NCBI GenBank assembly: GCA_951406725.2
Contig: OX597822.1
Coordinates: forward strand, 100,440,001-100,504,000
Reading direction: 5' to 3'
DNA from: Octopus vulgaris
Lineage: Eukaryota
Length of the DNA stretch: 64,000 nt
Below the pieces are notes generated by a model. It made no database searches and was not told the origin of the DNA. It saw nothing but the letters and a program-made list of their open reading frames with translations. Made by a program: the position numbers and the translations under genes. Positions 25,530 through 62,890 of this stretch are shown here, one piece after another (within the stretch, counting starts at the first letter, position 1; every line of letters starts with the position of its first letter).

Positions 25530-26065
25530 TATATATATATATAAAGCAGAGTTTGTGTGTGTGCGAGCGCGCGTATGTTCCTTACACATTCGAAAACTTT
25601 TGTCACTTTCACCTGCAATCCTAAATGGGAGGAAATAAAATCTAACTTTCTTCCAGCGTCACATCTTCTGGTATTGCAGCTATCCTCCTCAATGGGGGAA
25701 GAGCTGCCCATTCCGTGTTCAAGCTTCCTCTAAACCTTGTAACGAGAGAATCTCAAATGTGTAACATTTCCCAAAACTCTGCAATGGCAACAGTTCTCCA
25801 ACAAACTTGCCTCGTTGTTTGGGATGAGTGCACTTTGTCACTTCAAGGAGCTCCAGAGGTACTTGACCGAACCCTCCAGGACAAAAAACTATCGCACGCT
25901 CATGAGAAGAGTAACAGTTCTTCTTGCAGGAAATTTTCGTCAAACGTTGCCAGTTATCCCCAAAGAATCAAAAGCTGACGAGGTCAATGCAATGCATGCT
26001 TACAAAAATCGTACCTTTGGAGACATGAAAAAACTTCATCGTACAAGCAACATGAGAGTACTTCT
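25530..26065 (+). mobile_element. Helitron fragment (Rep motif joined to PIF1-like helicase motifs)
   Basis: TFTCNPKWEEIK, SSGIAA, AHSVFKLPL, VVWDEC, GNFRQTLPV. Confidence 0.9.
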
Positions 26066-26338
26066 AAGACACACGCAAACACATACATATACATACGGAT
26101 GATTTCTTTCAGTTTATGTTTACCAAACTCACCCACAAGGCTTTGGTCGGTCCGAGGCTATAGGAGAAGACACTTGGCCACGGTGTCACGCAGTTGGATT
26201 GCTCTCGGAATCATGTGCATGGGAAGCAAGCTCCTTTTCCCGACCACATAGTTTCGGGTTCAATCCCGCTACATGGCACCTTGGCCAAGTGTCTTCTGTA
26301 TATTTTATCACAGATGATGATTGCAAAATATCTTAAAG

Positions 26339-32559: not shown

Positions 32560-32806
32560 ATTTTCTCTTAAATACCGAAATACGTCACAGAGCACCTCCT
32601 AATTCCATCAATAACCCACTTGCACACTATCACTTGCATCTTCGGCAATGATCTTGACAATGAAATCATTGGGACACGTGATGTCACGGCCAGTGTAGAT
32701 GTGAACAAACCCAAACGTATTTCAAGGTATATTTATCCATTGATAATATTTCATTAATCTTTCGAAAAGAACAAATCAGTTGGGTCTCCCTAAATATAGA
32801 ATTAGT
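32560..32806 (+). other. Conserved non-coding module A, copy 1
   Basis: Inverted homologue at 48985-49215; paralogous to module B. Confidence 0.8.
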
Positions 32807-32880
32807 TGTAAAGGTGCAGTTGTTTCCTACCTACATACATACATACATATATATACGTATGTATGTATGTTCTTTTAATA

Positions 32881-33139
32881 CTTAAATACGTCATAGACTA
32901 CCTCTCCCCTCCTCCTTTTCATTTCATTAACATCTCACCTACACATTGTTCTATTAGAGTCTGGCGTGGTCTTGGCAATGAAATTTAAGATACACGTGAT
33001 GTCATCACCAGCGTGCGGATGAATGCAAAGATGATTGCCTATCTCAGTGGCCGTCGATAATCTGTTAATTTCCCGGCAAGAGTACTCCACTGAGGTCTCC
33101 CTCAATATTGCGATTGGAATTAGTGATAAACCAGCTTAT
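32881..33139 (+). other. Conserved non-coding module B, copy 1
   Basis: Inverted homologue at 48315-48558. Confidence 0.85.
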
Positions 33140-33164
33140 GCCGGGGATGTTCATTCTCTAAAAA

Positions 33165-33237
33165 TAATACATACATACATACATACATACATACATTAAT
33201 ACATACATACATATAATATATACATACATACATAACA

Positions 33238-33269
<32 letters not shown>

Positions 33270-33295
33270 ATATATACATACATACATAACATACA

Positions 33296-33329
<34 letters not shown>

Positions 33330-33348
33330 ATATATACATACATACATA

Positions 33349-33379
<31 letters not shown>

Positions 33380-33679
33380 CATATAATATATACATACATA
33401 CATAACATACATACATATACATATAATATATACATACATAGATAACATACATGCATATATGCATGCATACATACATGCATGCATACATACATACATACAT
33501 ACATACATACATACATACATGCATGTATGCATGCATGCATGCATGCATGCATGCATGCATGCATACATACAAGCATACATACATACACACACATACATAC
33601 ATATATACATACAAACATACATACATGCATGCATGCATACATACATGCATACATACATACATACACACACATACATACA

Positions 33680-33712
<33 letters not shown>
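33165..33712. repeat. (CATA/CATG)n compound microsatellite with recurring variant units
   Basis: ATATAATATATACATACATACATA recurs five times. Confidence 0.9.
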
Positions 33713-33762
33713 GTACACAGCTCCCTCTTTATTTCTCTCTCTCTCTCTCTGAATATATAATG

Positions 33763-33823
<61 letters not shown>

Positions 33824-33870
33824 ATATATATACACTTACGTATACACCCCCCCACACACATACATACATG

Positions 33871-34017
33871 TAGGAGTGTGGTAAAAAGCTTGCTTCCCAA
33901 TCACATGGTTCCGGGTTCAGTCCCACTGCGTTGTACCTTGGACAAGTGTCTTCTACTATAGCCTCGGGCCGAGGCTATTGACATGTGTGTGTGTATGTGT
34001 ATGTGTGTGTGTGTGTA

Positions 34018-34057
<40 letters not shown>

Positions 34058-34273
34058 TGTTTGTGTCCCATCACCGCTTGACAACCGGTTGTGGTGTGTT
34101 TACGTCTCCGTAACTTAGCGGTTCGGCAAAAGACACGGATAGAATTAAGTTCTAGGCTTTAAAAAAATAAGTCCTTGGGTCGATTTGTTCAACTAAGACC
34201 CTCCCCCCACGCCAAGGCGGTGCTCCAGCATGGCCGCAGTCAAATGACTGAATCAAATAAAAAAATAAAAGAA
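33871..34273 (+). mobile_element. SINE family 1
   Basis: Homology to 3364-3760. Confidence 0.85.
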
Positions 34274-34329
34274 TACACACACACATACATATAAAAAATT
34301 TCTCGTACATTTTACTACTTTCTACAAAG

Positions 34330-34540
34330 TCCGACCATGACAGTGAAAATCCTACACGTGTTTCGAAAACAGACGTTATTACAAGAGACTGAAGCGAAGA
34401 GATTTTAAGCTCCAGTGAACATAGCTGGATAATCTTATGTATAGGGTTCGTTAAAGCCGACTAATTTGCCGTCATAATTAAGTTAGCAAGTTCACAGAGA
34501 TTATCTAACTGTTCCAACGATGTTGATGTTTCTGTGTTGC
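34330..34540 (+). other. Conserved non-coding module C, copy 3
   Basis: Homologous to 15839-16050. Confidence 0.85.
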
Positions 34541-35636
34541 TTTAATATGTTTGTTGTTGTTGTTGTTATTGTTGGTGGTGGTCGTCGTCGTAGTAGTCGG
34601 GGTTGTGTTCATAGTGGTAACGAAGGGCCGGAGAAAAGGTCATTGACTTAAATAATTTACTTGATATGTACGCGTCTATGTGTGTATGTATGTACGTATG
34701 TATGCAAATCAGGTCACTGTTTGTGACATTGGTAACACGTAACCCAGTACAAACTGTTACATGGTCGGGCTGATGGCGACGACTAAACTGGCAACCGTAC
34801 CAAACCGACTTGATAAGGAGGGTGGGTTTTGCTGGATACTTTGCAAGACGAAAAAATAATTAAAAAATCTGTCAAAGGGCATGTAATCTTGATAGAAACA
34901 ATTCCTTTATTCACCGTGAGGTTGAGAAAAAGAGGGGACGATACGAGGACAGACAAAACAAACATTGGGATCAGGGGATCGAATGAGACGAAACGTATGA
35001 ATAAACAAACAATTTTATTGTATATATTTTTATATACAATTAAATGAGAATGAGTGATTTACAAAAAATGAAGCGGAGGACGCGGTCGACCCCACAAACC
35101 ACATACTCACACAGAAGACTTTGCTTTGTGCTTTTTTTGTTCTCGTTTAGACAGGTTTTTTTCACTCGCAATATACTTGTTACAGACTTCCATCTTTTAA
35201 GAAACATACTTTGCGACAGGCATTTCTTCTCCAGTCTTATTTTCCATTTCAAGTGGAAAACGAAAATGTCGATTAGCTTGAGACTAAGAATGGAGGCTTC
35301 TATCAAGTTTGACTCTATCAAGTTTACATGAGGCGCCGGTCACGTAAACTTGATAGAGTCAACGGCCATCCAACAGCAGGAAGCGAGAAACCTCTATTCT
35401 TTGTTTAGATATCTCTTCAGGAGAAGGTAATTCCGAAATTGTACCCTCTTCTCCACGAAGCCGGATACTCGCTCTTGTTTGTTTCTGGTCTACTTGGATT
35501 TTAACGGTGCTGTGTAAGCTGTTACTGACTTGAACTTTCAGCACAGGTTTTGCTGACACTCATTGTCATTCACATCTACGATAAGTTAAGATAACTTATA
35601 AGTGATGGTCACACTCGTCTACTAGTTGGCAGCCAC

Positions 35637-35699
<63 letters not shown>

Positions 35700-35755
35700 G
35701 CTGTGATGATTATAAAATACAATACTTAAAAACCTAAGGGTATATCTTTTTTCTA

Positions 35756-35840
35756 TCCCTCTGAAGAGATTTTGCCTAATATAATGATTTTATTAATTAC
35801 TATTTAATCTATTAGGCCTAATAGAAACAGTTGTAAGGGA
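35756..35840 (+). ncRNA. Type I hammerhead ribozyme motif with extended stem II
   Basis: TCCCT/AGGGA stem I; CTGAAGA; GCCTAATA/TATTAGGC; GAAACAGTTGTA. The stem II closing pair is mismatched. Confidence 0.65.
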
Positions 35841-36065
35841 CCTTGTTTGATTTTTGCAGATAATAAATTTTTATTAAATGTTATATCTCCATTTTCTTAC
35901 TTTCGTTTGAATGATTATATATATATATATATATATATATAGTAGTTTCTAAGCTGAAGTGAAGGCAGCATGTTCTTTGTCTATCTCCTTAACTTCTTGG
36001 AGATTTTAAGTAAAATTATATTAATGTGTCCATCTGTTTTAATTTAATTAAATTCTATGTATTTC

Positions 36066-36151
36066 TGCAGCTGAGGATTGGTATGCATTTAAATTGATGT
36101 AATGGTAGCATTGTTCAATTAAATGGAGTTGCGTGAAACGATAGTACTGCA
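36066..36151 (+). ncRNA. Type I hammerhead ribozyme motif with extended stem II
   Basis: TGCAG/CTGCA stem I; CTGAGGA; CATTTAAATTGA/TCAATTAAATG; GAAACGATAGTA. Confidence 0.6.
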
Positions 36152-36211
36152 TTACCTCTGGATATCCTTGTTGCTTATTTTGACATATATATATATAAAC
36201 ACACACACACA

Positions 36212-36259
<48 letters not shown>

Positions 36260-36634
36260 CATATCTGTATGTATGTACGTATTTCCACCCGTCACATGCC
36301 CAGACGAGAATTCATCACCATTGATGTAGGGGGCAGTTGATAAAACATTCATCGATATAGCAAATAGCCGCCCATCTGAACGAAATCTGAGTCAGTAATA
36401 AATTAAAATAGCGATCACTGTATCATACTTAATGTATATACACTGTTGATAGACCAGTCACTGCAGTATTTGTCCTCAGATAACATCTCTTGTGGACGTA
36501 CTATGTTAAAAAACAAAACAGACAATATATATCAGAGAGAGACGAAAATCCATTTTTGCGATGAACGCCAGATTTCGGCCATTTTGGCCTTTAGATACTT
36601 AATGCTTGTTTTTATATAAAACAATATATGGAAA

Positions 36635-36938
36635 TACTGTTGTGTCTGGGGAGAGTCATTTACTTTTTGTGCCTTATAATATAACACACTCACCGGTAAA
36701 ATTTCCACTTATTTCTTATTTTTATTTTTCTAAAATTTTCTTGTTGTTTGACTCAAAGCTATTGAAAAGGTTGCAAGACGCAACGAAAATTTTAGGAAAA
36801 TAAGAATAAGAAAAAAGTGGAAATTTTACCGGTGAGTGTGTTTGTTATAGTATAAGGCACAAAAAGAAAATGACTCTCCCCAGACACAAGACACGAACTC
36901 AGATAAAGAATCTTGCAAACCAAATCCAAAAACGAAAT
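36635..36938 (+). mobile_element. Interspersed repeat with an inverted 5' duplicate (~105-bp foldback arms)
   Basis: 36640-36745 is the inverse of 36780-36889; same family as 7787-7977. Confidence 0.8.
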
Positions 36939-37628
36939 ATATGAAAAAAAGAAACAATTTTACAGTAGACTAAAGTATTATTCAATGAAGTTTTAGAAGA
37001 CTACATGTTTATTAATTTTTTTATAAGGGAAAAGTTGACAGTGACCTTGAAGCTTCGGCTCGCTCACACACACATACACATACACAACACTGACACATTT
37101 ACGCTTATACATACTTAGTTTTATGTATGTATACATACATGCACGCAAACATATATATATGTTTATACATACATGCTTACGTATGTATACATATACTCAA
37201 ACACATACACATATACGTATATGAAATATTTAGTCACGTCAGAGACTGTTCTTTCCTTTTTTTTTTTTTTTTGGTATTACAAATTACTTATTAAATTACA
37301 TAATTCGGTGAACACAACATATTAATCCGGGATGAAACAATGCTAAATGTGTGTGTGTGTGTGAAGGGGGGGCGGCGGTTATTATGTTGGTTTTTTTTTT
37401 TTTTTTGCTTTTTTTAATTTTTACTCGAACCGACTCATAGTCACACACACAGATACATACATATAAGCATAACAGATATAGATATATACACGAACATACA
37501 CACGCCCAGATAACACACAAATATATACGCATATATTCACACAATTAACAGAAAGAGGCATTCAGACACATACAGATAACCACAGAGCCACACAGCCGCA
37601 TATACATACATATACTCACAGATAGCAT

Positions 37629-37669
<41 letters not shown>

Positions 37670-37820
37670 CACACACACAGACGTACACACCAGTAACAGA
37701 CATAGAAACACAAACGCACACATAGATAACAGAATAGATACGCACACACAAACACGACAGATAACACACACACACACACAGATATGCGCGCGCACATTGA
37801 TAACACATATAGACATACAT

Positions 37821-37885
<65 letters not shown>

Positions 37886-38755
37886 CATAAACATACAAAC
37901 ATGCTAACAGATATAGTTATACACACGTAAATATGCACAAATAACACAGACACACAGACAGACAGCCTATCTCATCCGCTTTTGTTTCTGTCTGTTTCGC
38001 TGTTTCTCTTCTCTCCCCGGCTTTTCTTCGAATTCCTCCTAAATCTCTCTTTCCCTCTCTTTTGCCTTTTACAACATGGATGAAGGTCAATCGGTTATGA
38101 AGACTAACAGATCGATTTATCTATTTATCTATTTATTAATCTGCAGGATAGTTAAGAAGGTCAAGTTTTACCAAAATATTTAGGAAGTTCAAGATTCGAT
38201 AACAAGAAGGCATTATGTGACCAAAATAGAAAAGTCACAGTTCTATAAAAGAGTCACTATGTTACTGAAATAGTTTAAAAGAAAAAAAAAACGGAAAAAA
38301 TACAGAAAAAATGGTCAAGATTCATTAAGAGAGTAAATTAAGTTTCGCGACGCAGTTTTATTGCATGATGGTTGGAAAGAAGCGAGTAAATAGGGTCTGA
38401 GAGAGTAAAAGAGATATGAGTGAGTAAATGAGTGATGAGAAGAGTAGAGAGTGAGAGAGAGAGAGAGAGGTGGAAGGGGAGAGAGAGAGAGAGGAAAGGA
38501 GAGAAAGAGAGAGTCATAGAGAGAATAAGAGCGATATATACGTGTGTGTGTGTATGTGTGAAGAAAAGACACGTATATATGCATGCATGTATGTATGTAT
38601 GTATTTATGTATCTATGTATGCATGTATGTATGTATGTAGCTATGTATGCATGTATGTATGCATGTATGTATGTATGTATGTATGTATGTATGCGTATTT
38701 GTATCTGTGAGGTTTTAATGTTCAGTTTGACTATATATATACACACACAGACACA

Positions 38756-38815
<60 letters not shown>

Positions 38816-38893
38816 CATATATTTCCAGCAAACATTGGTGCCTTGTACCACTACTCTATATTTATATATATACATACACACACACACACACAC

Positions 38894-38925
<32 letters not shown>

Positions 38926-38928
38926 ATG

Positions 38929-38986
<58 letters not shown>

Positions 38987-39423
38987 CATATATATATATG
39001 CACAGGCTCACACACCTGTGTATGTGTGTGAGAAAAGGAAAGAACGCGGGAGAGAGAGAGAGAGAAATTATTCCATAGTTTGTTGATTTAAGCAGAAGAG
39101 GCGGGATTAACGGGGGAAAGCGTCGAAGAGTCGAGATTGTAATAAACTTGATAACAGAAACCAATGAACAGGCTAATGATCGTCTTTCTGTTAATAATTA
39201 ATCTTAGTTAAAATTTCTTGTGTTGGTGTTGAGATAATCTATAACTAGATGTGCTAAAGAGAGACATCACTGATTACCAGACGTCTCCGAGTAATTAACC
39301 TCATTAATTAAATTGTTTGAATATTTTTGAATAGATTATTACCAATCTGGAGACCTGCTAAGCAGACGTTTAGTCTCCACTATCCTTGCTGAAACTGGAT
39401 AGGCATTCGATATATATATATAT

Positions 39424-39501
<78 letters not shown>

Positions 39502-39773
39502 TAATAGATATAGTTTTGAATTTGAAATAGAACTGTTGTCGCGAATTATTGTGGTTTTCTTGGAAAATTAAATGGAATTGTCAGAAAGGGATTATGAATT
39601 CGCAACCAGGAATCGAAACCTCGGTCTGCATGTTAGTTTTCATTGTTGCTGCCATCTTAGGTGATACAGCGTCAATTTCTTTTCTTTCTATCTTTCCTTT
39701 TTTTTTTTTGAAATACCTCATCCGATTCCATTGTTTCTGATCGAGTTCTAATTTTAACACAGTTATTAATATT

Positions 39774-40171
39774 TTCTATTCAAGGCACAAGGCCCGAAAT
39801 TTTGGGGGAGAGGGCCAGTCAATTAGATCGACCCCAGTACGCAACTGCGTGGTACTTAATTTATCGACTCCGAAAGGATGAAAGGCAAAGTTGACCTCGG
39901 CGGAATTTGAACTCAGAACATAAAGGCAGACGAAATACATGTTTCTTTATTACCCACAAGGAGCTAAACACAGAGAGGCCAAACAAGGACAGACAAACGG
40001 ATTAAGTCGATTATATCGACCCCAGTGCATAACTGGTACTTATTTAATCGACCCCGAAAGGATGGAAGGCAAAGTCGACCTTGGCGGAATTTGATCTCAA
40101 AACGTAACGGCAGACGAAATACCACTAAGTATTTCGCCCGGCGTGCTAGCAATTCTGCCAGCTCGCCGCCT
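39774..40171 (-). mobile_element. SINE family 3 dimer
   Basis: 19-bp TSD TTAACACAGTTATTAATAT. Confidence 0.9.
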
Positions 40172-41212
40172 TAACACAGTTATTAATATAAGACACCTGT
40201 AGCAAAACATTTTCTTTGCTCGGCAACTTTCACAGGGGTAAAATCTTTCTTATTCCTTGCCCTTGGTAGACAACTAACTTGGCTTCAATAGCAAACCAGG
40301 TATGAGCTTTCATATCACTGTCTCCTTCACAGCAACTTAATAGTCAGCCTATTACATCTATAACAAGAAACTCTCGAACAGAACTTAAATATGCATTATT
40401 TCCAACTCGTCGCAGTCGTGATAAACCTCATAACGATTAAATATAAGCTATCATAACTCTAAGTATAAACTATCTAGTGTTAATCCTTTCAGTTACCAGT
40501 TATGAAACTCTCAGCCTTTCGCGATCTTTTTCAAATCCAATCTTTTCTCTACTAGCCTTCTGAACAGCCTTATCCAAACAATCTTGCTAATTACAATTAG
40601 TCTGGTACATCTGGTCACATCTTCAAATTACTACACATACAACCGTTACAGAATTTTGCGCAAGGCGTTGTCTTCAATAACAAATCGTATCATAAAATTG
40701 CCATTTCATTGCAAAGGCTTGTAACTCTCTCATAGAGCTGTGGGAGCGGTGTTGTAATATACGGGCATGCTTTAAGCATTTTGAAATGTGTCGGAGCCCA
40801 TTCCTCTCTATGTCTAACCACAGTCGATTTCTTCCAGAACGAAAGAGACAGACAGAAAGAAAGTACTAGAGAAAGAAAATAGTCGACTCTGGTACATAAC
40901 TGGCGCTTTATTTATCGAGCCTGAAAGATAAAGTTGACTTATGTAGGATCTGAATTTAGAGCGTAGAGAGCAGGAATGATTGCTGCAAGTTGTTTTTCCG
41001 ACACACAAACGACTCTGCCAGTTGGCTATCCATTGTGAAATTGTGAAATAAAATTGTGAACAGTTTAAAAATGGTAAAATTAGTTTGTTGCAAGGAAGAG
41101 GGAAAATGCTTTTCGTCAGAGAGTAATGTTCGTATCGAATCAATAGAATGTCGGTCGGCAGAGGGAGACAAAAATATGAAAAGAGCGAAAATTAAGGGAG
41201 AAGAGGAATGAG

Positions 41213-41255
<43 letters not shown>

Positions 41256-41453
41256 GCACGGACTTTGTCAGTGAACAGGTCGCGGATTTTAGCGACGAAA
41301 ATATTTTGACAAATTAAACTTAAATGTTGAAGTGAATCGAACGGCTTTTGTGTGTTTCTTAAATGGCTTATAAACACCTTCCACGCTGCAATTGTTTTCG
41401 TTTCAGCACACGATCTCAGATCAAATTACTTGCTATGCGAGTACATCTCCGTA

Positions 41454-41521
<68 letters not shown>

Positions 41522-41790
41522 TCTATACATTCTCCTTCGAAACGCGGAGTAGATGAAACCATGGTGACTGAAGAAGGGGAATTTTCCTTGTGTTAATTGT
41601 CCTGTACTCTATTTTTTCGTTGTTTAAGAAAAATGTCCTGTTCCTTGGTTTTATGTTTGTGTTTTCGTTTCTCATTGTGTTCGACGATTTTTTTGGTGTC
41701 CTGTACCCATAGATGCATGTATATATACATGTAGATGTAGGTACGTACATGTATGTATGTATATATGCTTATGTTTTGTTTATTAATTTG

Positions 41791-41835
<45 letters not shown>

Positions 41836-42336
41836 ACAGTGGAGGGAGGAGACCACTTGGCGAAACGTGGTGAAAGTAGGGGAGATAATCAGCAAAGACG
41901 TTGGCAAATTAGAACGATGCAGACAATCTCTAGCTTTCCCGGTTTCTACTCTTGACTTTATTAAAGGTAAGATATTGAGTTATCATTTCAAAGATTATTG
42001 ACGATTATCGAAGATTATTAAATATTATTATAGAACGATAGACGTGGGTAGAAGACATGGGTAGAATTTAGGGTAGAAGCAAGCAACTGCTGAAGCTATT
42101 TACTCAGACGATTAGTTTCTTTTTATATCAAAATAAACAGCTAATGTTCTTATACGTTGGGTGTAGTTGTGGTTGTCGTCATACATTGTTGATGCTGCTA
42201 TTACTGGTGCTGTTATCGTTGTCGTTGTTATCGTTGATGATGTTACTGCTGATGCTTCTGTTGTTCTTGCTATTGTCGTTTATTATCAGTTCTGGTGGAA
42301 TAAATAGATATATGATTAAAGGGGTCTCAGCTATGG

Positions 42337-42768
42337 AAGGTGGCGAGCTGGCAGAAACGTTAGCAGTATTTCGTCTGCCGCTACGTTCTGAGTTCAAATT
42401 CTGCCGAGGTCGACTTTGCCTTTCATCCTTTCGGGGTCGATTAAATAAGTACCAGTTACGCACTGGGGTCGACGTAATCGACTTAATCAGTTTGTCTGTC
42501 CTTGTTTGTCCCCTCTGTGTTTAGTCCCTTGTGGGCAATAAAGAAATAAGAAACGTTAGCACACCGGGCGAAATGCTTAGCGGTATTTCGTCTGCCGTTA
42601 CGTTCTGAGTTCAAATTCTGCCGTGGTCGACTTTGCCTTTTATCCTTTCGGGGTCGATAAATTAAGTACCAGTTGCGCACTGGAGTCGATGTAATCGACT
42701 TAATCCGTTTGCCTGTCCTTGTTTATCCTCCCTGTGTTTAGCTCGATGTGGGTAGTAAAGAAATAGGT
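42337..42768 (+). mobile_element. SINE family 3 dimer
   Basis: TSD TCTCAGCTATGGA. Confidence 0.9.
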
Positions 42769-42945
42769 ATCTCAGCTATGGATATTGCATCTGCCTCCCC
42801 ACCCCCGTTATTGTATACCCTGGCTATACTATCCAATATATACTTTATGTAAATCTATTTGGTCGCTCGAACTGCTGCTGCTTCTAGCAAATCGAGCAGC
42901 CACATAAAAATCCTCTCGTTGGCCTGAATATATGTTAGTCTATAT

Positions 42946-44330
42946 CAGTGTTTCCCAAACTTTTCGCACCGAATTGCAATATCGCCCACCTATCGGCCAA
43001 AAAATGCTCCATCGCTCACCTGTGTAAAAAAAAAAAGACCTTGACACAACCCCCCCACCAACACAAAATCCCCTAAGAGCCCCCCTGTATCATTTGACAC
43101 ACACACTACATTGTTGCCCTGTTGGTGCCGTTTGGACCAACGGGTGTTTACAAATCCTTTATTATGGGTTTAGTTTTGCCATTAGTGTCAATAAAATTCT
43201 AGCGTTAACTCTATATTATGCAGACAGATTAACTTCTGGAAACTTGCGCTTTCTTTTACACTGATTTTCATTTTCCCCAAATGAACCATTGATCAGAACT
43301 ACCGATGCAAAAATAATTAATGATTGTATTACAAAGGAAAAGAATACAACCTTTTAATGAGAACCATGTGTCTGGTGCGATGCAGCTAGTTGCCGATACA
43401 TACGGTTTCAAACTTGTCAACTTTAGCCGCATGTCTCCTCGTTGTATCACATCCAGTCCAATTTTTTTATGGGAAAGTTCCAACATGGTTAAAACCAGAT
43501 TCAACTAGGTATGAAGTAGGGAAGGCAAGCAAAAGTAATTTCAGATTGAGGTAGGAATTCAATAAACTCTGATGGTATCACAAACCTTCTTCACCATTAC
43601 GGTGTAATCGCATTGTGGCGTCATTGCCAATTTGTAATTCTATCAATTCCTCCTGAACATCATACTCGCAATGACTGCATCGACCTCAAACGGATTGCTA
43701 TACCAATTTGGAATATTCAGCGCAACAACATCTTCAAATCACTCCATGTTATCGTGCAGTGGTTGTATATAGTTGCGATATGCAGTTAAATCCTCATCAA
43801 TCAATTCATCTTTCAAAGAATCAAGTTCTGGAAGTTAATAGAATTGACGTTTTGAAATGTTAGTCTTAAACAACACCAATTTCGAAATGAAGGTAGTGAT
43901 TAATGATTTACAATCAACGAGAGTTTTACTGTTCCCTTGCAATAATCTATTCAAATAATTTAATTTTATGAATACATCACAAATAAAAAAGATATCACTT
44001 CTTGCAGCCATCAATGAGGCGGATAGTGGAATATTTTCAAAGAAAAAGATATTATATAAAACAGTTGAACAAAATGTAAAACACAGTTTCCATTTGACAG
44101 CCACCGCACTTGGTATGGTATAAGAGTTTAGTATGACCCTCATCATTTCTCAGACAGAGTTGACAGAAAATTCGATCAGACAAGGGACTGGACTTCAATT
44201 TGTTCACAGTCTTGATAACTAATTGTAGCGCATCATTCAATCTACTGTTTATATTTTTTGTCAATAAATGCTGCCGGTGTGTCAAGCAATGAACAGTTAG
44301 TATCTGGTGGGAAATTTCACGCAAAATAGG
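42946..44330 (-). mobile_element. hAT (Charlie/Buster, ZBED5/8-like) transposon 3' remnant
   Basis: TIR CAGTGTTTCCCAAAC; minus-strand VHCLTHRQHL, LLYHT, LNRLLQG, PTSYLVESGF and RGDMRLKLT. Confidence 0.85.
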
Positions 44331-44334
44331 AGGA

Positions 44335-44672
44335 GGAGACCTCCTTCGGTCATGAATTACCATGGGGCTGCACCTAGAAAGTTACCCTCCGAGGCACAAA
44401 TCAGGGCAAGATTGTTTGTGGAAGGCTAGCAGTCACCCATGCATACCAGCCTCCTCTCTCCATGCCACCGATGTTATCCAAGGGAAAGGCAAATGCCAAT
44501 ACAGCTTGGCACCAGTGATGTCGCAACTCATTTCTACAGCTGAGTGAACTGGAGCAACGTGAAATAAAGTGTCTTGCTCAAGAACACAACACGTAGTCCG
44601 GTCCGGGAATCGAATTCACAATCTCACGATCGTAAACTCTGCGCTCTAACCTCTGAGCCATGCGCTTTCACA
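44335..44672 (-). mobile_element. tRNA-derived SINE (TTGAGCAAGACACT type)
   Basis: Head with GTTAGAGCG and TTCGATTCC; homology to 8935-9060. Confidence 0.8.
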
Positions 44673-45422
44673 GTCCGCAATGCCAGAAAAATCCGCGATG
44701 TACTGAGAGCGCGATAGGTGAATCGTGATATGGCGAGTGGTTACTGTATGTCAGCCTCTCGTTCCGTTTTCGACAGGATTTCTGGACACCTTTTAAGTTT
44801 CTGTAAATAGAAACTTGTTAGCATTACCATGTCAGTATTATGTCATCTTGACACCATTAGGCTTTCTAAAGTCAGCCGTCGCAATATGATAATGCTTTTA
44901 TCAAATCTTGATATTATTTAATATTTTGATAACAAGATGATTATTTTACAGAACCTTGATCTGCGTAACAAAATGCTGATTAAAAACAAGAAGAACAAAA
45001 ACAAAAACATTTTGCTAGTTTATTTCTTATAACTGATTAATCTGCAGCCGTTCGGATGAGAAAGCGACAGCGCGCCCGCATGCGTGAGAAGCAGAAGTAT
45101 AGAAAAAAGAGAAGAGAGGAAGAGATAGAGAAGAGAGACAAGAAGAGAGAGAGAGGAGGAGAGAGATGGAGGAAGAGAGGGTTGGAAGAAAAGTGAGAGC
45201 AAGACTAGGAGTGCTTGTGTGTTAGTCTATGAGTGTATGTGTGTGTGTTTGCGTGTGTTTAACGCATCAGGTGAGCTGGCTAAAATGAAAGAACAACAAC
45301 AACAAAAAAACACAAACAAACACACATTTGGTTTTACTTTATCTGAGATTAATATTTTGTGTTCACTGAGGTATGTAATCCATTGGACGGATTTACTACT
45401 CACCGATACACGTCGGGTAATA

Positions 45423-45862
45423 CTACTATGGCAATTCCTCAAGGTCGAGGATGATGGTCTTCGCGCAAATTTATTGGTGAGTCCGCAGGTGACTGATAAG
45501 ACAAATTCTTGCTCGAAAAGATCGGTCGCAGTGCGGACATCAAGTGCCGGAAGGGAGAGTCGCACGTGGTTGTTGTTGTTGGCGCTCCTTCCGTCGTCTT
45601 CGTCTTTTCTCCTCCAGCTCTGCAGACCTTTTCGACTCGAAATTCGCCGTTCCCTCATGGATGGTGGTGGTTTTCCAGAGTGGTCTGTTTTTTGCCGTTT
45701 CCTCCCAGTTGGTGAAGTCAATGTCACACTTTTTGAGGTTCGATTTCAGGGAGTCCTTGTAGCGTTTCTTCTGGCCTCCTTTTGTACGCTTGCCGTCTTT
45801 GAGTTGGGAGTAGAAGATCTGTTTGAGAAGTCGTTCGTCAGTCATAGAATGACACACACATA

Positions 45863-45909
<47 letters not shown>

Positions 45910-46342
45910 TATCTATGGCAATCCCTCAAGGTCGAGGATGATGGTCTTCGCGCAAATTTATTGGTGAGTCCGCAGGTGACTGATAAGACCAATTCTTGCT
46001 CGATAAGATCGGTCACAGTGCGGACATCTAGTGCCGGAAGGGAGAGTCGCACGTGGTTGTTGTTGTTGGCGCTCCTTCCGTCGTCGTCGTCTTTTCTCCT
46101 CCAGCTCTGCAGACCTTTTCGACTCGAAATTCGCCGTTCCCTCATGGATGGATGGTGGTGGTTTTCCAGAGTGGTCTGTTTTTTTGCCGTTTCCTGGAGC
46201 GGCCACGTGGTTAGAATGACTGACGAACGACTTCCCAAACAGATCTTCTACTCCCAACTCAAAGACGGCAAGCGTACAAAAGGAGGCCAGAAGAAACGCT
46301 ACAAGGACTCCCTGAAATCGAACCTCAAAAAAAAAAAAAAAA
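45423..46342 (-). mobile_element. Chimeric RTE-clade insertion: two 3' ends plus an inverted piece inside one TSD
   Basis: [38 protein letters not shown]...GLISHLRTH; 13-bp TSD ACGTCGGGTAATA at 45410 and 46343. Confidence 0.9.
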
Positions 46343-47246
46343 ACGTCGGGTAATATGTTTTATCAAAAGACATGTAAAAGGCATTCATTATCATGTAGGT
46401 ACTCTATGTCTGTCTGTCTGTCTCTCTTTCTCTCACACATGCACACACACACTCATATTAAACAGAAATGGACCAAGAGAAATAACGCATGTGCACGAAC
46501 GGCATAAACATATACAGGTATAGCAAATACGGTACAACATAATTTTTTTATTTTACAATCATCGGAGTCCGAAGCGTTCCTCACGAACGCACGTTGGTGA
46601 GACGGTTGTGATATATAAACAGTTTCGAATAAGAACCGGAAAGCGAAGTATGAACATGCAATGTGCATGTGCACGCCGAACATAAAAATAAAAATGCAAT
46701 GCGCATGTCAAAGTAAAACGGAAGAGGAGAATAAAACAAATTATATGACAACACTATTAGTGAAGCTTTGCTGTAATTGTCTTGGTTATTTTTTTCATTT
46801 TTCGTTTATTAAAACCATCTTCGCATTTAGATGAGTCACAATTACCAAATGGCAATTAAGACCAGCTACATATGAGAAGGGGAGATAATCGCAAGAACCA
46901 AGCATTCTCTAGAGTTGGCAACGTGCCATTAAAGAGAAGAACAGTATTAAATGAAGTACCGAGAAGAGTATTTTATTTACTAAAAGAAACTTTGAAAGCT
47001 GTGCCCCAAGAATGACTGCAGTACTGAAACTGCTAAAAAATTTAAAAGAAAAACTGACCGATGCATAGCCGTCTTTGAAGCATTATAGGCCCCTGGACAA
47101 CTTAATACATTAGGTTCTATAGTAGTTATTTACTTGTAAGCAAGCCACAGCATACACAGACCAGAATTGAACCACTAGACCAGACTTGTGAGGCCCTTGG
47201 ACAACTGCTCAGCGTGCCCACGCTTTAAGACAGTATTAGACCCATG

Positions 47247-47666
47247 GAAGGCGGCGAGCTGGCAGAACCGTTAGCACGCCGGGCGAAATGCGTAGCCGTA
47301 TTTCGTCTGCCGTTATGTTCTGAGTTCAAATTCCGCCGAGGTCAGCTTTGCCTTTCATCCTTTCGGGGTCGATAAATTAAGTACCAGCTACGCACTGGGG
47401 TTGATGTAATCGACTTAATCCGTGTGTCTGTCCTTGTTTGTCCTCTCTGTATTTAGCCCCTTGGGGGTAGTAAAGAAATAGGTATTTCGTTCGTCTTTAC
47501 GTTCTGAGTTCATATTCCGCCGAGGTCAGCTTTGCCTTTCATCCTTTCGGGGTCGATAAATTAAGTACCAGTTACGCACTGGGGTCGATGTAATCGACTT
47601 AATCCGTGTGTCTGTCCTTGTTTGTCCTCTCTGTGTTTATCCCCTTGTGGGTAGTAAAGAAATAGG
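47247..47666 (+). mobile_element. SINE family 3 dimer
   Basis: TSD GTATTAGACCCATGG. Confidence 0.9.
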
Positions 47667-47900
47667 TATTAGACCCATGGTTGTTTTCACCCAAGTTTAT
47701 TTGAAAAACAGTAGTTTAAACATTTAAGTTTCATCTTCTAATCTTTATCGCATTACTGTTACAAATATAGAAACAATGTCATTGATGTTCCGACAATTAT
47801 ATAAGTCATTCATTCACCTGCTCCCTTATCCCCTCATCACTAACAAACATAATCTATGCCACCCTCACCATCCACAACAACGAACATAATAAGGTATGAT

Positions 47901-48102
47901 AACATTGGTGCTGTTGTATACAGTTAGATAATTCCAGTGTAGTTGCTGGCTTAATTTCAATGGCAAATTAGTTGGCTTGGCCGAACCCTTTACAGAGGAT
48001 TATCCAGCTATGTTCACTGGAGCTTAAAATCTCCTCATTTTAACCTCTCGTAAAAACATCTGTTTTAGTAACACATGTAGAATTTTCACTGTCATGGTCA
48101 GA
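47901..48102 (-). other. Conserved non-coding module C, copy 4 (inverted)
   Basis: Reverse-complement homologue of 15839-16050. Confidence 0.85.
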
Positions 48103-48314
48103 TGTATCGGAATGAACTTGAATATATAAGTCTCCCTGTCTCTCTCTGTCTCTGTCTCTCTCCTCTTCCTTCTTCCCATTTTTCATTCTTTTTTCTCTTT
48201 CTCTCTTTGCATGTATGTATGTATGCATGTATGTATGTATGTATGTATGTATGTATGTATGTATGTATGTATGTATGTATGTATGTATGTATGTATTACT
48301 TTTACCTCTCCAAT

Positions 48315-48558
48315 ATAAGCTCATTTATTACTGATTCCAATCTTAATATCGAGGAAAACCTCAGTGAAGGGTTCTTGCCAAGAAATTAACAGATTATCAA
48401 CGGTCATTGAGATATACATCCATTTTTGTACACACTGGTAATGACATCAGATGTATCTTAAATTTCATTGCCAAGACCACGCCAGACTGTAATACAACAA
48501 TGTGTAGGTGAGATGTTAATGAAATGAAAAGGAAGAGGGGGTAGTCTGTGACGTATTT
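48315..48558 (-). other. Conserved non-coding module B, copy 2 (inverted)
   Basis: Reverse-complement homologue of 32881-33139. Confidence 0.85.
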
Positions 48559-48645
48559 CACTATTTAAAAGAATATACATACATACACACATACATACAT
48601 ATATATGTATGTATGTATATAACAATTTAACAAATAAAACATATG

Positions 48646-48676
<31 letters not shown>

Positions 48677-48707
48677 GTACATACCTACATCTATATGTAT
48701 ATATACA

Positions 48708-48771
<64 letters not shown>

Positions 48772-48889
48772 TACAGGACACCACAAATAAACGTAGAACA
48801 CAACGAGAAATGAAAACATAAAAACTAACAAGGAAACGGACTTTTTTTAACAACGAAAAAACAGAGTACAAGACAAACAATACAAGGAA

Positions 48890-48933
<44 letters not shown>

Positions 48934-48984
48934 CTTTATATATGTATGTATGTATATATATATATGGAACATTTGCAGGTTTAT

Positions 48985-49215
48985 AATTTATTTCATATTT
49001 AGGGGGACCCCCAATGAGGTAGTATCCATTGATGAGATTAACTGGATATTATCAATGGGTAATATGCCTTGAACCACATTAGGCTTTGTCCATATCTACA
49101 CTGGTGGTGACATCACGTGTTCTGATGGGTTCATTGTCAAGATCATTGCTGAGTGTATGGGGGGGCGGGAATTAATGGATGTGGGAGATGGTCTGTGACG
49201 TATTTAAGAGAAAAT
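48985..49215 (-). other. Conserved non-coding module A, copy 2 (inverted)
   Basis: Reverse-complement homologue of 32560-32806. Confidence 0.8.
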
Positions 49216-51257
49216 GCGTTCAGTTGAACAGAGAAAATTACCAGACGTGTTGAAATGCATCAATATATTTACATATATTCTCTTTAACTCTTTTTCGTTG
49301 TTTCACTCAAATGACAACGGTCAAGTATATATATATATATATATATGTATGTATATATATATATATATACGTTGAAATATTTGTAAAGAATGTTGAATCT
49401 GAAATTTTTTGTCGCTCTCTCTACAATTGTAAGAATTGAATGGCGGTGGAGACTATTTTTATGGTGCAGCTGAAGTCGTATTTCAAAAAAATTTAGGGTA
49501 TTGGAATGTTAAAATGGCGGCCACTTCTGATTTAGATTATGAAATATAAGGATTTTATGCTTCAGTGAATAAATAACGTTAATCCTAAAAGGGCAACAAT
49601 ATATGTTTATGTAGCTTAAATCTCCATTGTTTGTTAAGAGCGCTGATAACTTTGCAGCGAATAAGGATTATTAACCGCTTAACACGGAATGTTATACTAC
49701 AAACACATACGTGTTTTCAAACAAATACATTCACATGTACATACAAATACACAGATGTTTTTCTTCTTACTTTTGGTACCAGGCTGACGATTTTGAGGAG
49801 AAGAAATACGTACATTACATCAACCCCAGTACTTGACTATCGCTTTATTTTTATGGACACCGAAAAGATGAAAAGCAAATTTGACATCGACAGAATTTGA
49901 ACTCAGAATGTAAAGAGTCTGATGAAATACCGCTTAACTTTTTGTCCGACACGCTAACGATTCTGCCAGTCTATTAAATATGAAAAGTGACCATCTCCTT
50001 TGTAATAATTGACCACTTTGGGACAATACGAGTATATATATGTGTGTGTATGTGTGTGTGTGCGCACGTGTACAACTGCACATTGTGAACGCAGCAATAG
50101 CCAAATAGCTGAAGTCGCTTAGCAGCCATGAGGTCTCGGGTTCGAGGAGATAGCTGAATAACTGTAAACTTACTTTTGGGCCACCATATATATATAAGAC
50201 AGAAAAATGGGACAAGAATGTAAAACATCCAGACAATCGATACAAAAAAAAGGACGAGTCATTCGGAGTTTTCTTTCTAAAGTCGAGTTCCAGATTATCT
50301 TTGCAATTTTGGCTGGTTATACTCGAGATTTCTCCAATCTAGCCTGCTCCAAGGAAAAACTAAGCTAAGAGCATTAGATTCCTTGGAAGAAAGCAGCGAA
50401 TGTATATGAAAACAAGGACAGAAAAAAAACGGAGAAATTGTACACAAATACAAAAAACAGGACATTAACAACGGGTGTCTTTCGACTAAGGACGAATTAA
50501 ATTAAGCTGGCGTGTGTGGAAGTAAAGCCTTGTGGCAGGGACATACGATTTGACAGACACAGGGAAGAATATAGATGCTGCACGGAAGGTAGTCGAACCA
50601 AAAAAGAAAGCTCAGGCTTGGCCGAACACCGGTAATCTGGGGAGAGAAGTGAGGGAGGTAGAGGTAGAGGGATAGAAGAATTAGGAGGAGCAAGAAAAAC
50701 ATGAAAGGCACAGAGTGAAGTGAAAGAGGAGAGAAGGTGAGCATGAAGAAAAGGCCAGGAAATGTGAGAAGGGGGAACGAAAGAGCGAAGTCGGAATGAA
50801 TGAAGTAGGTGTGAAGAGGCTGATAGAAAGAAGGAAAGAATGAAAGAAAAGAAAGAATGGAAAGAATAACAGAGTCGTACAAAATTTAGATATATATATA
50901 CTTACATATAAGAGACCAAAGTGTACGTACGCCGCTATATTTTTTTATCTATAAAAATACAAAAATGGGCCAAGAACGCAAAACATCCAGACAGGTGATA
51001 CAAAAAGGGGACAACAAAACATCCAGACAGACGATACAAAGAAAACAAGGACGGGTCATTCGAAGTTTTCTTTCCATCCACACACACACACACACAAACA
51101 CACGGGTATAAATGTATTTCAATACATACACTTTGATATATATATATATATATATATATATTTAATCATATCAAAGGGAAATGGAAATTAATCAAAATTT
51201 ACATTTTCAGTGGTCTAACGTGTAAAAATTTAGTCCAAAAGACTATGTATTAGTCAT

Positions 51258-52052: not shown

Positions 52053-52113
<61 letters not shown>

Positions 52114-52135
52114 GTCTTTCTCTCTCTCACCTTCA

Positions 52136-52193
<58 letters not shown>

Positions 52194-52195
52194 TT

Positions 52196-55100
52196 ATGTG
52201 CTCTCTTAACGAGATACCAAGCATTGACCTTTCCATGGCTCTTTGAGCCGTTATCAGTCTTTGCTCTTCTCTCTTTGTGGTAGCCCATGTTTCACTACCA
52301 TATAACATTGCAGGCAGAACTGCACTGTTAATGAGGTTGGCGCGGGTGGTCCTGTCCAACCTTCCCTTGAGCACATCCCTTATGCCATTGGACGCCTTCC
52401 ATCCGGCCCTTACTCTCCGTGAGATCTCCTTTTTGATATCCCGGCACATATTTACTTCCTGTCCCAGGTAGACATATTCTCTCACCTCCTCTATTTCATC
52501 ACTGCCGATCACCATTCGACCTGTTGGTACGTTGTCTGACCGCATGAACTTTGTTTTCATGCGGTTCATCTTGAGACCTACTGCAGAACTTTTGATGTCG
52601 AGCTCCGTCAGCATGGTCTGAAGCTGATCCAAGTTTTCAGCGATGAGTACGATGTCGTCAGCGAAACGGAGGTGAGTGAGGAGCTCGCCATTGATGTTGA
52701 CATCACCTTGCCATTCGATGCCTCTGATGATCTGTTCGAGACATGCAGTGAAAAGTTTTGGGGAGATTGTATCTCCTTGCTTCACTCCCTTCTCGACCGG
52801 CACTCGATGGGTGATGACAGTAGGGCTATGTCGGTGGTGCATCCGGAATTTACCTCTCTGAGCAGCTGCACATATTGCGCTTCGATACCTTGCCTCTGCA
52901 GCGAGTTCAGCACTGCGTTGGTTTCGACGCTATCGAAGGCCTTCTCATAATCTATAAACGCAACGCAAAGAGGCAGCTTGTACTCATTTGCTCGCTCAAG
53001 CAGTTGCGTTAGAGCAAATATATGGTCCATTGTGCTGTAGTTCTTCTGGAAGCCTGCTTGCTCCCTCGGTTGTTGTTCGTCGAGACGACGTGACAACCTG
53101 TTCAGAATTATCTTCGTGAACAGCTTGTACACGTGAGACAGCAGGCATATGGGTCGGTAGTTCTTTAGATCTTCTCTGTCGCCCTTCTTATACAGCAGGA
53201 TGGTATTTGACTCTTTCCACTGCGAGGGAATTCTTCCCTCGTCTAGATAGTGCGTAAATCGATCAGCGAGGATTTTCCAGAGCTGCTCACTGCCTGACTT
53301 TAGCACCTCCGATGTTATACCGTCTTTCCCTGGAGCCTTTCCATTTTTCATCGAGCCGATGGCTCTTTCAACCTCACTGACAAGGATAGGTGGCACGTTT
53401 TCTTCCTGTTGGAGTGGTGGTAACGGCTGGACATTTCTGGTAGACTTAAAGAGCTTGGTGTAGAAGTCTTCACAAACTTTTTCCATCTGGCTCTTCTCGT
53501 TGACCGGTATTCCATCTGTATTTTTCAGGGCCGTCACCTCCGATCTATATAGTACCATGTCCCTCTTGCATTTCTTGAGGCTCTTCTTTTCCTCTGCGGC
53601 CTTCAAGAGCTCCTCCATCCGGTATGCCTCAAAGTCTTTCTTTAGTTGCTGACGAATCACTCTGCTGAGAATGGAATATTCAAGGTGATCTTCAATAGTC
53701 CTCTTCATATTTTTCCTCTTCTCGAGTAACTTCGTAGTTTCTTCCGAGATTCTTCCCTTCTTTTCTTTTGGGCATACACCTTTAGCCTTCCTTAAACACT
53801 CCTTCAGTTTCCCTATCAGTGAGTTGTAGTCATCGTCTATGTCGTCTCCTTGGCACCAGTCTTCCTGCATGATGGCTTCCTGCAGCTTTGTCTCATTGTA
53901 GACTCGGACACGTTTTCCCTTCGACGCCAAATATAACGCCATCTTCTCCCTCTTCTCGTCGATGACGACCCTCGCCCTTACCAGACGATGATCACTGCCG
54001 GTGTTGAATGGCGTCACGACGGAGACGTCATGCAATATGCGTCGCTTATCAACCAGGATGTAGTCGATCTCGCTTCTGTGCCTAGAGTTTGGCGATATCC
54101 AAGTCCATCTCTTCCTCTCCCTCTTCCTGAATAGGCTGTTTCCGATGTAGAGCTGCCTCGCCTCTGCCATGGTAGCCAAACGTTCTCCTCTCTCGTTTCT
54201 CTCTCCCATGCCAAATCTCCCGACGTACTCCTCTCCTTGTCGTCCATGTCCAACCTTTGCGTTGAAGTCTCCCATTACGACAGTGTAAGTGGACTTCATA
54301 GCCAACTCTTTGTCTAGTTGTCGATAGAATTCTTCCACCTCGTCGTCGTCGCTGGCACTTGTGGGAGCATAGGTCTGGACAATCTTGAGGGTGGCCTTCC
54401 CTGAGAGGTTCACATTTAGTACACCAATCCGTGATGATATGAAGTGGCAAGAAGCGACCCTCGAAGCCCATTCCTTACTTACGATGAATCCGATACCTCC
54501 GACCGATCTAACACCTTCTGCTCTTCCTAATCTCACAATGTATCCATCTTGCCATCGTATACTCGCTTCCTTCTTCCAACGTGTCTCGCACAGCCCTAAC
54601 ACGTCGCACCTGATCTTCTTCCTCTCCTCCATTAGGTGCTTCAGTTCTTGCCACCCTGCCATAGACCTGCAGTTGTAGGGGCATATGGCAAGTTTAGTCC
54701 TGTTCCATGACGGCTTTCGGGAACCTGTGATCCTTAGCAGCCTCTCGCCGCTCGAGTTGCACTACGCCGTCATGGAGTGGCCCGATTGACGTGCAGGGTA
54801 CTGAGGCCCTTTTCCTTTTCTCTTCGTTCTTCGTGCTGTTTTAGCCATAAGATGACGCCATCTCACTGGCTGGGCGGGCAGGCCGGTATTTTGTTAGATG
54901 GCTGTTGACTCTTCAGGAGTTCATCCGCCCTTTGTTGGGTCTTATTTTTCCATCCCACAGGGAGTCCAACAGCACCCTCCTCACCAAGCGAACCTGGTGG
55001 GGTTGTCAGTTTAGTCGCCGACGTCCCGATAGTAACATCATCAGAAAGAAGTCCGGCGTGAGAAATGTCATCGCAGAGTATACACGCAGCAAGTATAGAT

Positions 55101-62117: not shown

Positions 62118-62267
62118 TAGGCATGACTGTGTCGGTAAGAAGTTCGCTTCGCAACCATGTAGTTTCGCGTTCAGTTCCACTTCGCAGTAGCTTAGAAAAG
62201 TGTGTTCTTCTATAGTCTCTACTCGATCAATTGCGAGTGAATTTGGTTGACAGAAACTCTATGAATG

Positions 62268-62301
<34 letters not shown>

Positions 62302-62734: not shown

Positions 62735-62766
<32 letters not shown>

Positions 62767-62858: not shown

Positions 62859-62890
<32 letters not shown>

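Follow-up and report, generated by a model that had tools for sequence, protein, structure and literature searches.

Short segmental duplications and inverted low-copy repeats decay in intergenic DNA, and duplicated or shadow enhancers carrying E-box and GATA sites are also of a known kind. The E-box and GATA sites of the classical TAL1/GATA1 composite are spaced 8–10 nt apart, and the central CG of an E-box sets the bHLH class preference. Regarding inverted repeats that form double-stranded substrates for ADAR, a preprint reports that octopus has the highest editing rate among the taxa studied, with repeats as the main targets (bioRxiv 10.1101/2020.01.19.911685). The window analysed here, a stretch of 64,000 nt from the Octopus vulgaris genome, contains eight diverged copies of a non-coding unit of ~230 bases at 15.8–49.2 kb, and a ninth copy lies elsewhere (Table 1). 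The most likely reading is that small local duplications left these copies behind and that they are now decaying; a new regulatory or RNA system is less likely. As in local segmental duplications, the copies are few, tightly clustered and of mixed orientation, with homology running through the spacers; their substitutions resemble those of dead repeats, and a dead exon copy of similar size and age lies nearby. The locus differs from such duplications in that the unit comprises only about 230 bases and went through eight or more rounds of copying spread over a long period (40%–89% identity), once to another chromosome.

Table 1. Module copies, spacer repeats and sequence differences (window positions unless another contig is named).
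Feature	Position	Strand	Remarks
C copy C3	15825-16045	+	CACGTG at 15864, GATAAT at 15937
C copy C4	29325-29520	+	6-nt deletion in RCARTGAA block; CACGTG at 29352, GATAAT at 29426
A copy A1	32560-32807	+	CACGTG at 32675, GATAAT at 32742
B copy B1	32870-33130	+	CACGTG at 32993, GATAAT at 33056
(ATAC)n microsatellite, expanded, B-C spacer	33167-33709		shorter (ATAC)n array at 48211-48296
Dispersed repeat, left B-C spacer only	33876-34269		probable insertion
C copy C1	34315-34528	+	CACGTG at 34355, GATAAT at 34428
C copy C2, inverted	47901-48118	-	CATGTG at 48077-48072, GATAAT at 48004-47999
Four A>G differences	48055, 48058, 48067, 48075	+	one contig, presumed RNA run X3
B copy B2, inverted	48316-48575	-	CATCTG at 48453-48448, GATAAT at 48398-48393
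Dispersed repeat, right A-B spacer only	48647-48892		matches 41581-41828; probable insertion
A copy A2, inverted	48986-49215	-	CACGTG at 49119-49114, GATAAT at 49053-49048
Ninth copy (A kind)	G000:C18:56167009-56167235		HBS1L intron, other contig

The initial annotation had described modules in the order A-B-C that recur inverted as C-B-A, and the positions and strands of the copies confirmed this arrangement; it was also right in treating the unit as duplicated, non-coding and low-copy. Core identity was 77.6% between A1 and A2, 87.0% between B1 and B2 and 82%–89% among the C pairs, and the resemblance of C1 to C3 extended to ~34655. Between families, identity fell to 58%–62% for A/B pairs and 40%–51% for A or B versus C. 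The three families can nevertheless be regarded as related because a profile built only from A and B copies recovered C3, at 15.8 kb (E = 1.2e-4, 267 kb searched; best E in a reversed-sequence control, 0.31). DNA searches of the 2.8 Gb genome with five DNA queries and three patterns, which miss copies below roughly 70% identity, yielded three A, two B and four C copies, with eight of the nine located within 34 kb. The patterns matched 4, 4 and 3 times genome-wide, and the controls gave 0 matches. No further copies were found in 600 kb of flanks searched in all, including a profile search of 100 kb on each side of the window, and a further 200 kb leftward contained nothing but a match to a UBE2O exon. 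Within 200 kb around the ninth copy, no other copy was detected (best other match, E = 0.025).

The modules are not a dispersed transposable element such as a SINE or MITE, as only nine copies were found in these searches. We consider it very unlikely that they descend from an ancient non-autonomous mobile element of low copy number or from pieces that a Helitron had carried along. The ninth copy shares nearly the same ends with A1 and A2, and Helitron-type fragments (PF14214, PF05970) sit between C3 and C4, which would be consistent with mobility; however, these fragments touch no copy, and nine copies in 2.8 Gb, eight of them within 34 kb, argue against it. Moreover, no terminal inverted repeats, target-site duplication or tRNA-like head were apparent by eye in these copies, which are old and have ends blurred by microsatellites.

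The structure of the inverted block is that of a local segmental duplication, with collinear contiguous homology, sharp ends and low copy number; homology stops at the ends of the A-B-C block and is continuous inside it. The spacers had been described as turned over to different repeats, but they consist of homologous microsatellites that differ in length, together with two repeat insertions (Table 1), and have not been replaced wholesale. One alignment starts in the last part of A, crosses the A-B spacer and module B, and enters the B-C spacer (32728-33257 versus 48719-48208; 76.5% identity over 537 nt). Two observations count against neutral decay. Repeat insertions hit both spacers and none lies within any copy, and divergence across the block was uneven (A, 22%; B, 13%; C, 18%; p = 0.037), for which gene conversion or uneven constraint could be the cause. 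With moderate confidence, the modules can be interpreted as old local micro-duplications that are mostly neutral. Their history might have begun with an early split of C from A/B, followed by a tandem split giving A and B, and inverted copying of a roughly 1-kb A-B-C block; C would then have been copied twice more on its own, and A once to another chromosome. Most copies are bordered by simple repeats, where template switching or unequal repair may have been the mechanism, and later microsatellite growth and repeat insertion would make the unique parts look like islands. If neutral, the locus would illustrate cleanly that, in a genome rich in microsatellites, small duplications can mimic a constrained module array, with the neighbouring dead exon copy serving as a yardstick, and would be of minor interest.

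No frame stays open across the copies, and stops or frameshifts occur in all frames, in agreement with the initial view that no coding frame is conserved. A Pfam search of 30 frames from five of the nine copies returned no family in any of the 30. A coding exon was considered and rejected: frames such as NDLDNE..TRDV and its antisense seem open in single copies and are broken in others. A suspected resemblance to Cys-loop receptors and cadherins likewise found no support. The start of A and B carries a YAG acceptor-like site, and the comparison of sequencing runs listed no joints. The proposal of a non-coding RNA array gained no support from folding or Rfam. Fold z values ranged from -1.4 to +1.9 in all 18 strands (40 shuffles each), with no shared structure. 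None of the best 150 of 242 Rfam matches listed fell on the module core, and in a second search (all 43 matches), only MtlS touched it, scoring 17 bits where the cut-off is 80. A microRNA or snoRNA was rejected given the lack of a stable fold and of an Rfam match. Six module motifs were absent from 24,410 characters of the PMC9699675 supplement on octopus-specific microRNAs, and literature searches listed no paper on this locus.

Four of the 24 listed sequencing runs were compared over 2081 bases covering three of the eight copies. Contigs of X3, presumed to be an RNA run, lay on A2, B2 and C2, which would speak for function; that all three touch modules is close to random expectation (about 0.2, by hand). 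Over the compared bases, X6 gave no coverage and neither did X3 in its flank bins, which proves nothing, and no RNA run was listed for A1 and B1 among the sequencing runs. The X3 contig on C2 showed 4 differences in 117 nt, all four A>G (Table 1), whereas the other two X3 contigs showed 0 differences in 233 nt; the contig does not come from a paralogue, as that would differ at 23–25 places. This cluster could represent RNA editing or an allele. The inverted paralogues might matter as RNA, with a long plus-strand transcript forming C1/C2, B1/B2 and A1/A2 duplexes that are edited by ADAR and whose pairing is kept. The predicted duplex energies (-228 to -322 kcal/mol) fit such pairing. Inverted pairs (here 78%–87% alike) and an A>G cluster in a presumed RNA contig are features shared with known ADAR substrates. 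Nevertheless, we regard this explanation as highly improbable. The modules are low-copy and not young repeats, a transcript through both arms is presumed, and the cluster comes from one contig of depth 5.9 in a run guessed to be RNA and lacking DNA from the same individual, while no contig of X6 lay on a module. Paralogues carry three of the four G letters, so that an older allele would explain them equally well, and this overlap is not significant (p = 0.11); the A>G sites likewise showed no significant overall preference for A:C mismatches. Furthermore, two dispersed repeats that lie inverted to each other in the same interval would form a stronger duplex (-573 kcal/mol); therefore, any editing here would be a by-product and not the reason for the array.

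The cluster is intergenic, with UBE2O on one side and an STK24/25/26 kinase gene on the other. It lies upstream of the latter, the first coding exon of which begins 26.5 kb from A2. As an internal control, one exon of UBE2O has a dead copy, interrupted by stops and gaps, 60 kb left of the window; this copy is an isolated 168-nt island (78% identical) of the same sort as the modules. Compatible with the preferred explanation of decaying duplications, the unit core might derive from part of the neighbouring UBE2O gene, namely its seventh mapped coding exon, an origin that we consider possible although doubtful; the "E-box" would then be a relic of the codons ACA-CCT-GAT. The A+B profile matched this exon in the sense orientation (15.2 bits, E = 8e-4 in 200 kb), a score reached by none of 3000 codon shuffles under two shuffle schemes, and the dead copy in the same interval is of another UBE2O exon. 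On the other hand, the search took in five profiles and about 670 kb, an A-only profile scored 6.4 bits and an all-nine profile 6.1, and B-only and C-only profiles gave no match. Searching with the exon itself recovered none of the modules at E <= 0.5, the initial 90 nt of A/B are unmatched in the exon, and the mismatches counted by hand (9/12/9) showed no third-position excess. If the modules also proved to be enhancers, such an origin would allow the birth of a regulatory element to be traced.

CANNTG is present in all eight window copies exactly as first reported (six CACGTG, one CATGTG and one CATCTG), and the ninth copy has CATGTG together with a broken RCARTGAA block. A shortened RCARTGAA block does exist, but it belongs to C4, at 29.3 kb and thus beyond the interval that the initial annotation covered; the inverted C at 47.9 kb, to which it had been assigned, is intact. 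Each window copy has one GATAAT 55–74 nt downstream of the E-box, far from the TAL1/GATA1 spacing. The word is thus common to all eight, but it does not occupy a common site: the GATAAT of C lies in other columns, aligned with ATTAAT/GTTAAT of A and B, a shift that could be site turnover. All nine copies keep the C, A, T and G of the E-box unchanged (p = 1.8e-4 if named in advance; look-elsewhere p = 0.006 over palindromic XXnnXX patterns and 0.046 over XXnnXX patterns in general), and a 4-base run, TAAT, is likewise invariant (p = 0.04), although these values are uncorrected for alignment or detection bias and are inflated by alignment. The shared CANNTG would largely reflect survival by descent, and recognition bias may add to it, given that these letters let A/B and C be found and aligned.

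These invariant motifs favour the alternative that the modules are duplicated cis-regulatory elements forming a redundant enhancer cluster, most plausibly acting on the STK24/25/26 gene, with what we take to be a bHLH E-box, GATA- and homeodomain-like sites and, in A/B, a CRE-like half site. The unit size, non-coding character, position upstream of a gene and retained CANNTG and GATAA-like words are shared with shadow enhancers, and copies only 40%–60% alike persist at full length. In contrast to shadow enhancers, conservation at the level of motifs does not clearly exceed that of controls. The central CG of the E-box is changed in three of the nine copies, CANNTG occurs 239 times in the window, and the ninth copy adjoins genes unrelated to those neighbouring the cluster. 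Such an enhancer cluster is judged unlikely; of the initially proposed cis-regulatory array, the residual CA..TG/TAAT signal keeps a regulatory role at a similarly low probability, while the constraint claimed for it is unsupported. If the copies are enhancers, they would offer nine natural variants (40%–89% identity), a ready series for testing cephalopod regulatory grammar. A combined scenario, in which an octopus-specific eight-copy E-box/GATA/TAAT enhancer array upstream of STK24/25/26 was born from the UBE2O exon and its inverted halves are transcribed as an ADAR-edited long-range duplex, is quite improbable.

Constraint on the modules was not supported by rate, profile-overlap or indel tests. 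For the trimmed C copies, rate heterogeneity (LRT 0.2, alpha 3.2) was below the median of 60 four-copy sets of dispersed, dead repeats used as controls (LRT 1.1, alpha 1.1), which indicated that C copies resemble dead repeats; an earlier signal in C (alpha 0.76) disappeared after ragged ends were trimmed. The LRT was 2.7 for all nine copies and 7.2 for the A and B copies, the latter a value without a matched control that would favour enhancers, and the A and B copies also showed some clustering (window variance p = 0.02–0.04). The invariant columns of the A, B and C families do not coincide (p = 0.10, 0.90 and 0.08), giving no conservation profile common to the families and arguing against the enhancer cluster. 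In total, 26 of 133 ungapped columns were invariant, and simulations with a uniform rate gave 19 ± 4 (p = 0.06); indel depletion was borderline (p = 0.055), and unusually long identical runs, which count against neutral decay, occurred in two of ten pairs. Among the DNA runs X1 and X2, 3 substitutions were found in 125 covered module bases, clustered and perhaps one event, two of them striking letters common to all C copies, and some 600 bases of flank showed a single substitution and a deletion of 3 nt.

The module cluster, in a 2.8-Gb genome, sits between two genes with 100% matches to named octopus proteins: UBE2O (protein P0016, Octopus vulgaris) and an STK24/25/26-type kinase (P0001 and isoforms). 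To the right of the last module, 26.5 kb away, begins the first coding exon of the kinase. No further gene was found between them among long unique frames (44 scanned), a scan that small exons would escape. The first exon of the kinase encodes 306 residues that match no Pfam family, a longer-protein search with the kinase start retrieved the octopus cluster only, and an alternative first exon (P0014) lies ca. 58 kb downstream. Microsatellites (97 tandem-repeat rows) and dispersed repeats abound in the window itself, as do long LINE-type reverse-transcriptase-like frames recognised by eye and Helitron-type fragments, the latter between the solo copies C3 and C4.

Eight copies of the three related kinds of module (A, B and C) stand in the window. 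The initial annotation counted their E-boxes exactly (six CACGTG, one CATGTG and one CATCTG), and each copy holds one GATAAT (8/8). Its view that A, B and C are related also held: a profile built solely from A and B matched C3 (E = 1.2e-4), indicating common descent. The GATAAT described as common to the three kinds is present as a word, but that of C aligns with ATTAAT/GTTAAT of A and B, approximately 11 columns downstream of their own GATAAT. The shortened RCARTGAA block, assigned to the inverted C, is actually in C4. Nor have the spacers turned over to different repeats, since a single 537-nt alignment (76.5%) spans the end of A, the A–B spacer, B and part of the B–C spacer. This homology through the spacers, with no unique homology continuing beyond the block ends, shows that the duplicated piece is one block of ca. 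1 kb, with A, B and C as its unique parts.

Positions of the modules and neighbouring features (window: G000:C9:100440001-100504000)
Feature	Position	Strand
C3	window 15.8 kb	+
C4	window 29.3 kb	+
A1-B1-C1	window 32.6-34.5 kb	+
C2-B2-A2	window 47.9-49.2 kb	-
Middle part of C2 (91 nt)	window 47998-48088	
Ninth copy (A3)	G000:C18:56167009-56167235	
Extra repeat, right cassette, A-B spacer	window 48647-48892	
Extra repeat, left cassette, B-C spacer	window 33876-34269	
Longer (ATAC)n array	left cassette, B-C spacer	
Longest simple repeat, (TATG)n, 1.66 kb	window 62260-63923	
Reverse-transcriptase-like frames	window 2-2626, 11686-13421, 52102-54761	
Helitron-type fragments (PF14214, PF05970)	window 19358-19717, 25646-26102	
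UBE2O, end of last coding exon	113 kb left of window	+
UBE2O, seventh mapped coding exon	L078:8565-8657	
Decayed UBE2O exon copy	L013:9770-9936 (G000:C9), ~60 kb left of window	
Kinase, first coding exon	window-relative 75,719; L021:1719-2642	
HBS1L, 600-codon stretch	L039:2090-3889 (G000:C18)	
HBS1L, GTPase exon	L045:7998-8384 (G000:C18)	
DPP8/9 exon	L030:1821-2435 (G000:C18)	

On another contig stands a ninth copy, in sense orientation and with 73% likeness to A1, flanked by an exon matching HBS1L isoform 2 and an exon matching the HBS1L GTPase domain. The octopus HBS1L there has a 600-codon open stretch that ends in the human isoform 2 motif, well upstream of the GTPase exon, and a DPP8/9 exon lies further left. 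Five DNA queries (one being the ninth copy) and three patterns revealed no copies beyond these nine, and none was added by profiles run over 400 kb surrounding the window and over 200 kb at the locus of the ninth copy. With only nine copies from the DNA queries and patterns, a dispersed element fails as an explanation, and descent from an old mobile element is improbable.

On balance, the modules are probably a repeatedly copied and since decayed unit of ca. 230 bases that does nothing specific. Its copying would have involved tandem duplication, inversion of a whole block, isolated C copies and a single move to another chromosome, followed by decay. We infer that repeat-guided template switching is the likely means, given the simple repeats just upstream of most copies (clear at B1, B2 and C1–C4, weak at A1 and A3, absent at A2), which are not independent between copies because the flanks are common by descent. 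C2 and C4 are ca. 88% alike over the core, and the middle part of C2 differs from C4 by only 4 letters and one gap; this near-identity may reflect gene conversion. Its collinear, contiguous homology and low copy number place the array among local low-copy duplications. Our literature search found nothing on this UBE2O–kinase module locus, and the array is a new instance of a known phenomenon.

The copies share no reading frame, and none of 30 frames from five copies matched Pfam (stops read as X), so the modules fail as coding exons. They fail equally as structured RNA: fold z-scores were unremarkable (-1.4 to +1.9, both strands, all nine copies), and the Rfam matches listed sat on microsatellites, all under curated cut-offs.

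The interval supplies its own control, a decayed duplicate of a single UBE2O exon and a short stretch of intron (E = 4e-20). This duplicate carries stops and gaps, is presumably functionless, and its identity (78% over 168 nt) is the same as that of A1/A2 (77.6%); its surroundings yielded no other UBE2O exon copy. Isolated short islands of such age thus survive in the UBE2O–kinase interval without a reading frame. The A and B profile also matched the seventh mapped UBE2O coding exon (codons SHENESTVTPDANDQCVPE...SIDE) with 15.2 bits (E = 8e-4 in 200 kb), a score reached by 0 of 3000 codon shuffles, and CACCTG stands there at the box position. This exon is a possible source of the unit; however, the A-only and all-nine profiles score only ca. 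6 bits on it, the B-only and C-only profiles give no match, and the exon as query retrieves no module, making this origin rather doubtful.

The array had also been described as a cis-regulatory or ncRNA array under constraint. All nine copies keep the E-box letters C, A, T and G; the probability of this is 1.8e-4 for a motif specified in advance, 0.046 for XXnnXX of whatever kind and 0.006 when XXnnXX must be palindromic, and for four consecutive invariant columns, seen here as TAAT, it is 0.04; these values ignore the aligner's gap beside the box and the fact that these letters link C to A/B. Against this, the E-box CG is altered in 3/9 copies, and rate heterogeneity among the trimmed C copies (LRT 0.2, alpha 3.2) was below the median of 60 control sets, each made of four copies of a dispersed repeat (median LRT 1.1; median alpha 1.1). 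Invariant columns within families were not significantly common across them (Fisher p = 0.10 A/B, 0.90 A/C, 0.08 B/C). The LRT was 2.7 for all nine copies. Invariant columns numbered 26/133 (19 ± 4 expected under uniform rates; p = 0.06), and the ratio of gap openings to mismatches was 0.080 for 10 non-independent module pairs, where 400 control pairs gave 0.109 (p = 0.055). Also against constraint, in two DNA sequencing runs (X1 and X2) C2 showed three clustered substitutions in 125 covered bases, and the flanks one substitution and one 3-nt deletion in ca. 600 bases. In favour of it, the A and B copies show rate heterogeneity (LRT 7.2, no matched control set), the modules of the inverted block diverged unequally (p = 0.037), and 2/10 module pairs hold long identical runs. 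The evidence for constraint is a weak signal, pointing neither way firmly, and we consider an enhancer family unlikely.

Four of 24 listed sequencing runs were compared with window positions 47680-49760. X3, guessed to be RNA, gave three read-length contigs clear of inserted repeats, one on C2, one at the end of B2 and one on A2. Among the 32 records listed, the bin depths agree with these three contigs, and the last bin, which adjoins a repeat, has coverage too. On C2 the contig departs from the window at four places, each time as A>G on the + strand and all inside 21 nt, and the other two have 0 differences in 233 nt. A paralogue read would show 23–25 differences and is rejected. The cluster, seen in one low-depth contig of this presumed RNA run without matched DNA, looks like ADAR editing of + strand RNA; an older allele is also possible, because three of the four G letters occur in paralogues. 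Long duplexes are predicted for the inverted module pairs, but a function through duplex RNA is very improbable. Inverted-repeat editing is widespread, octopus is reported to have the highest rate among the taxa compared (bioRxiv 10.1101/2020.01.19.911685), and editing alone would therefore not confer function on the array.
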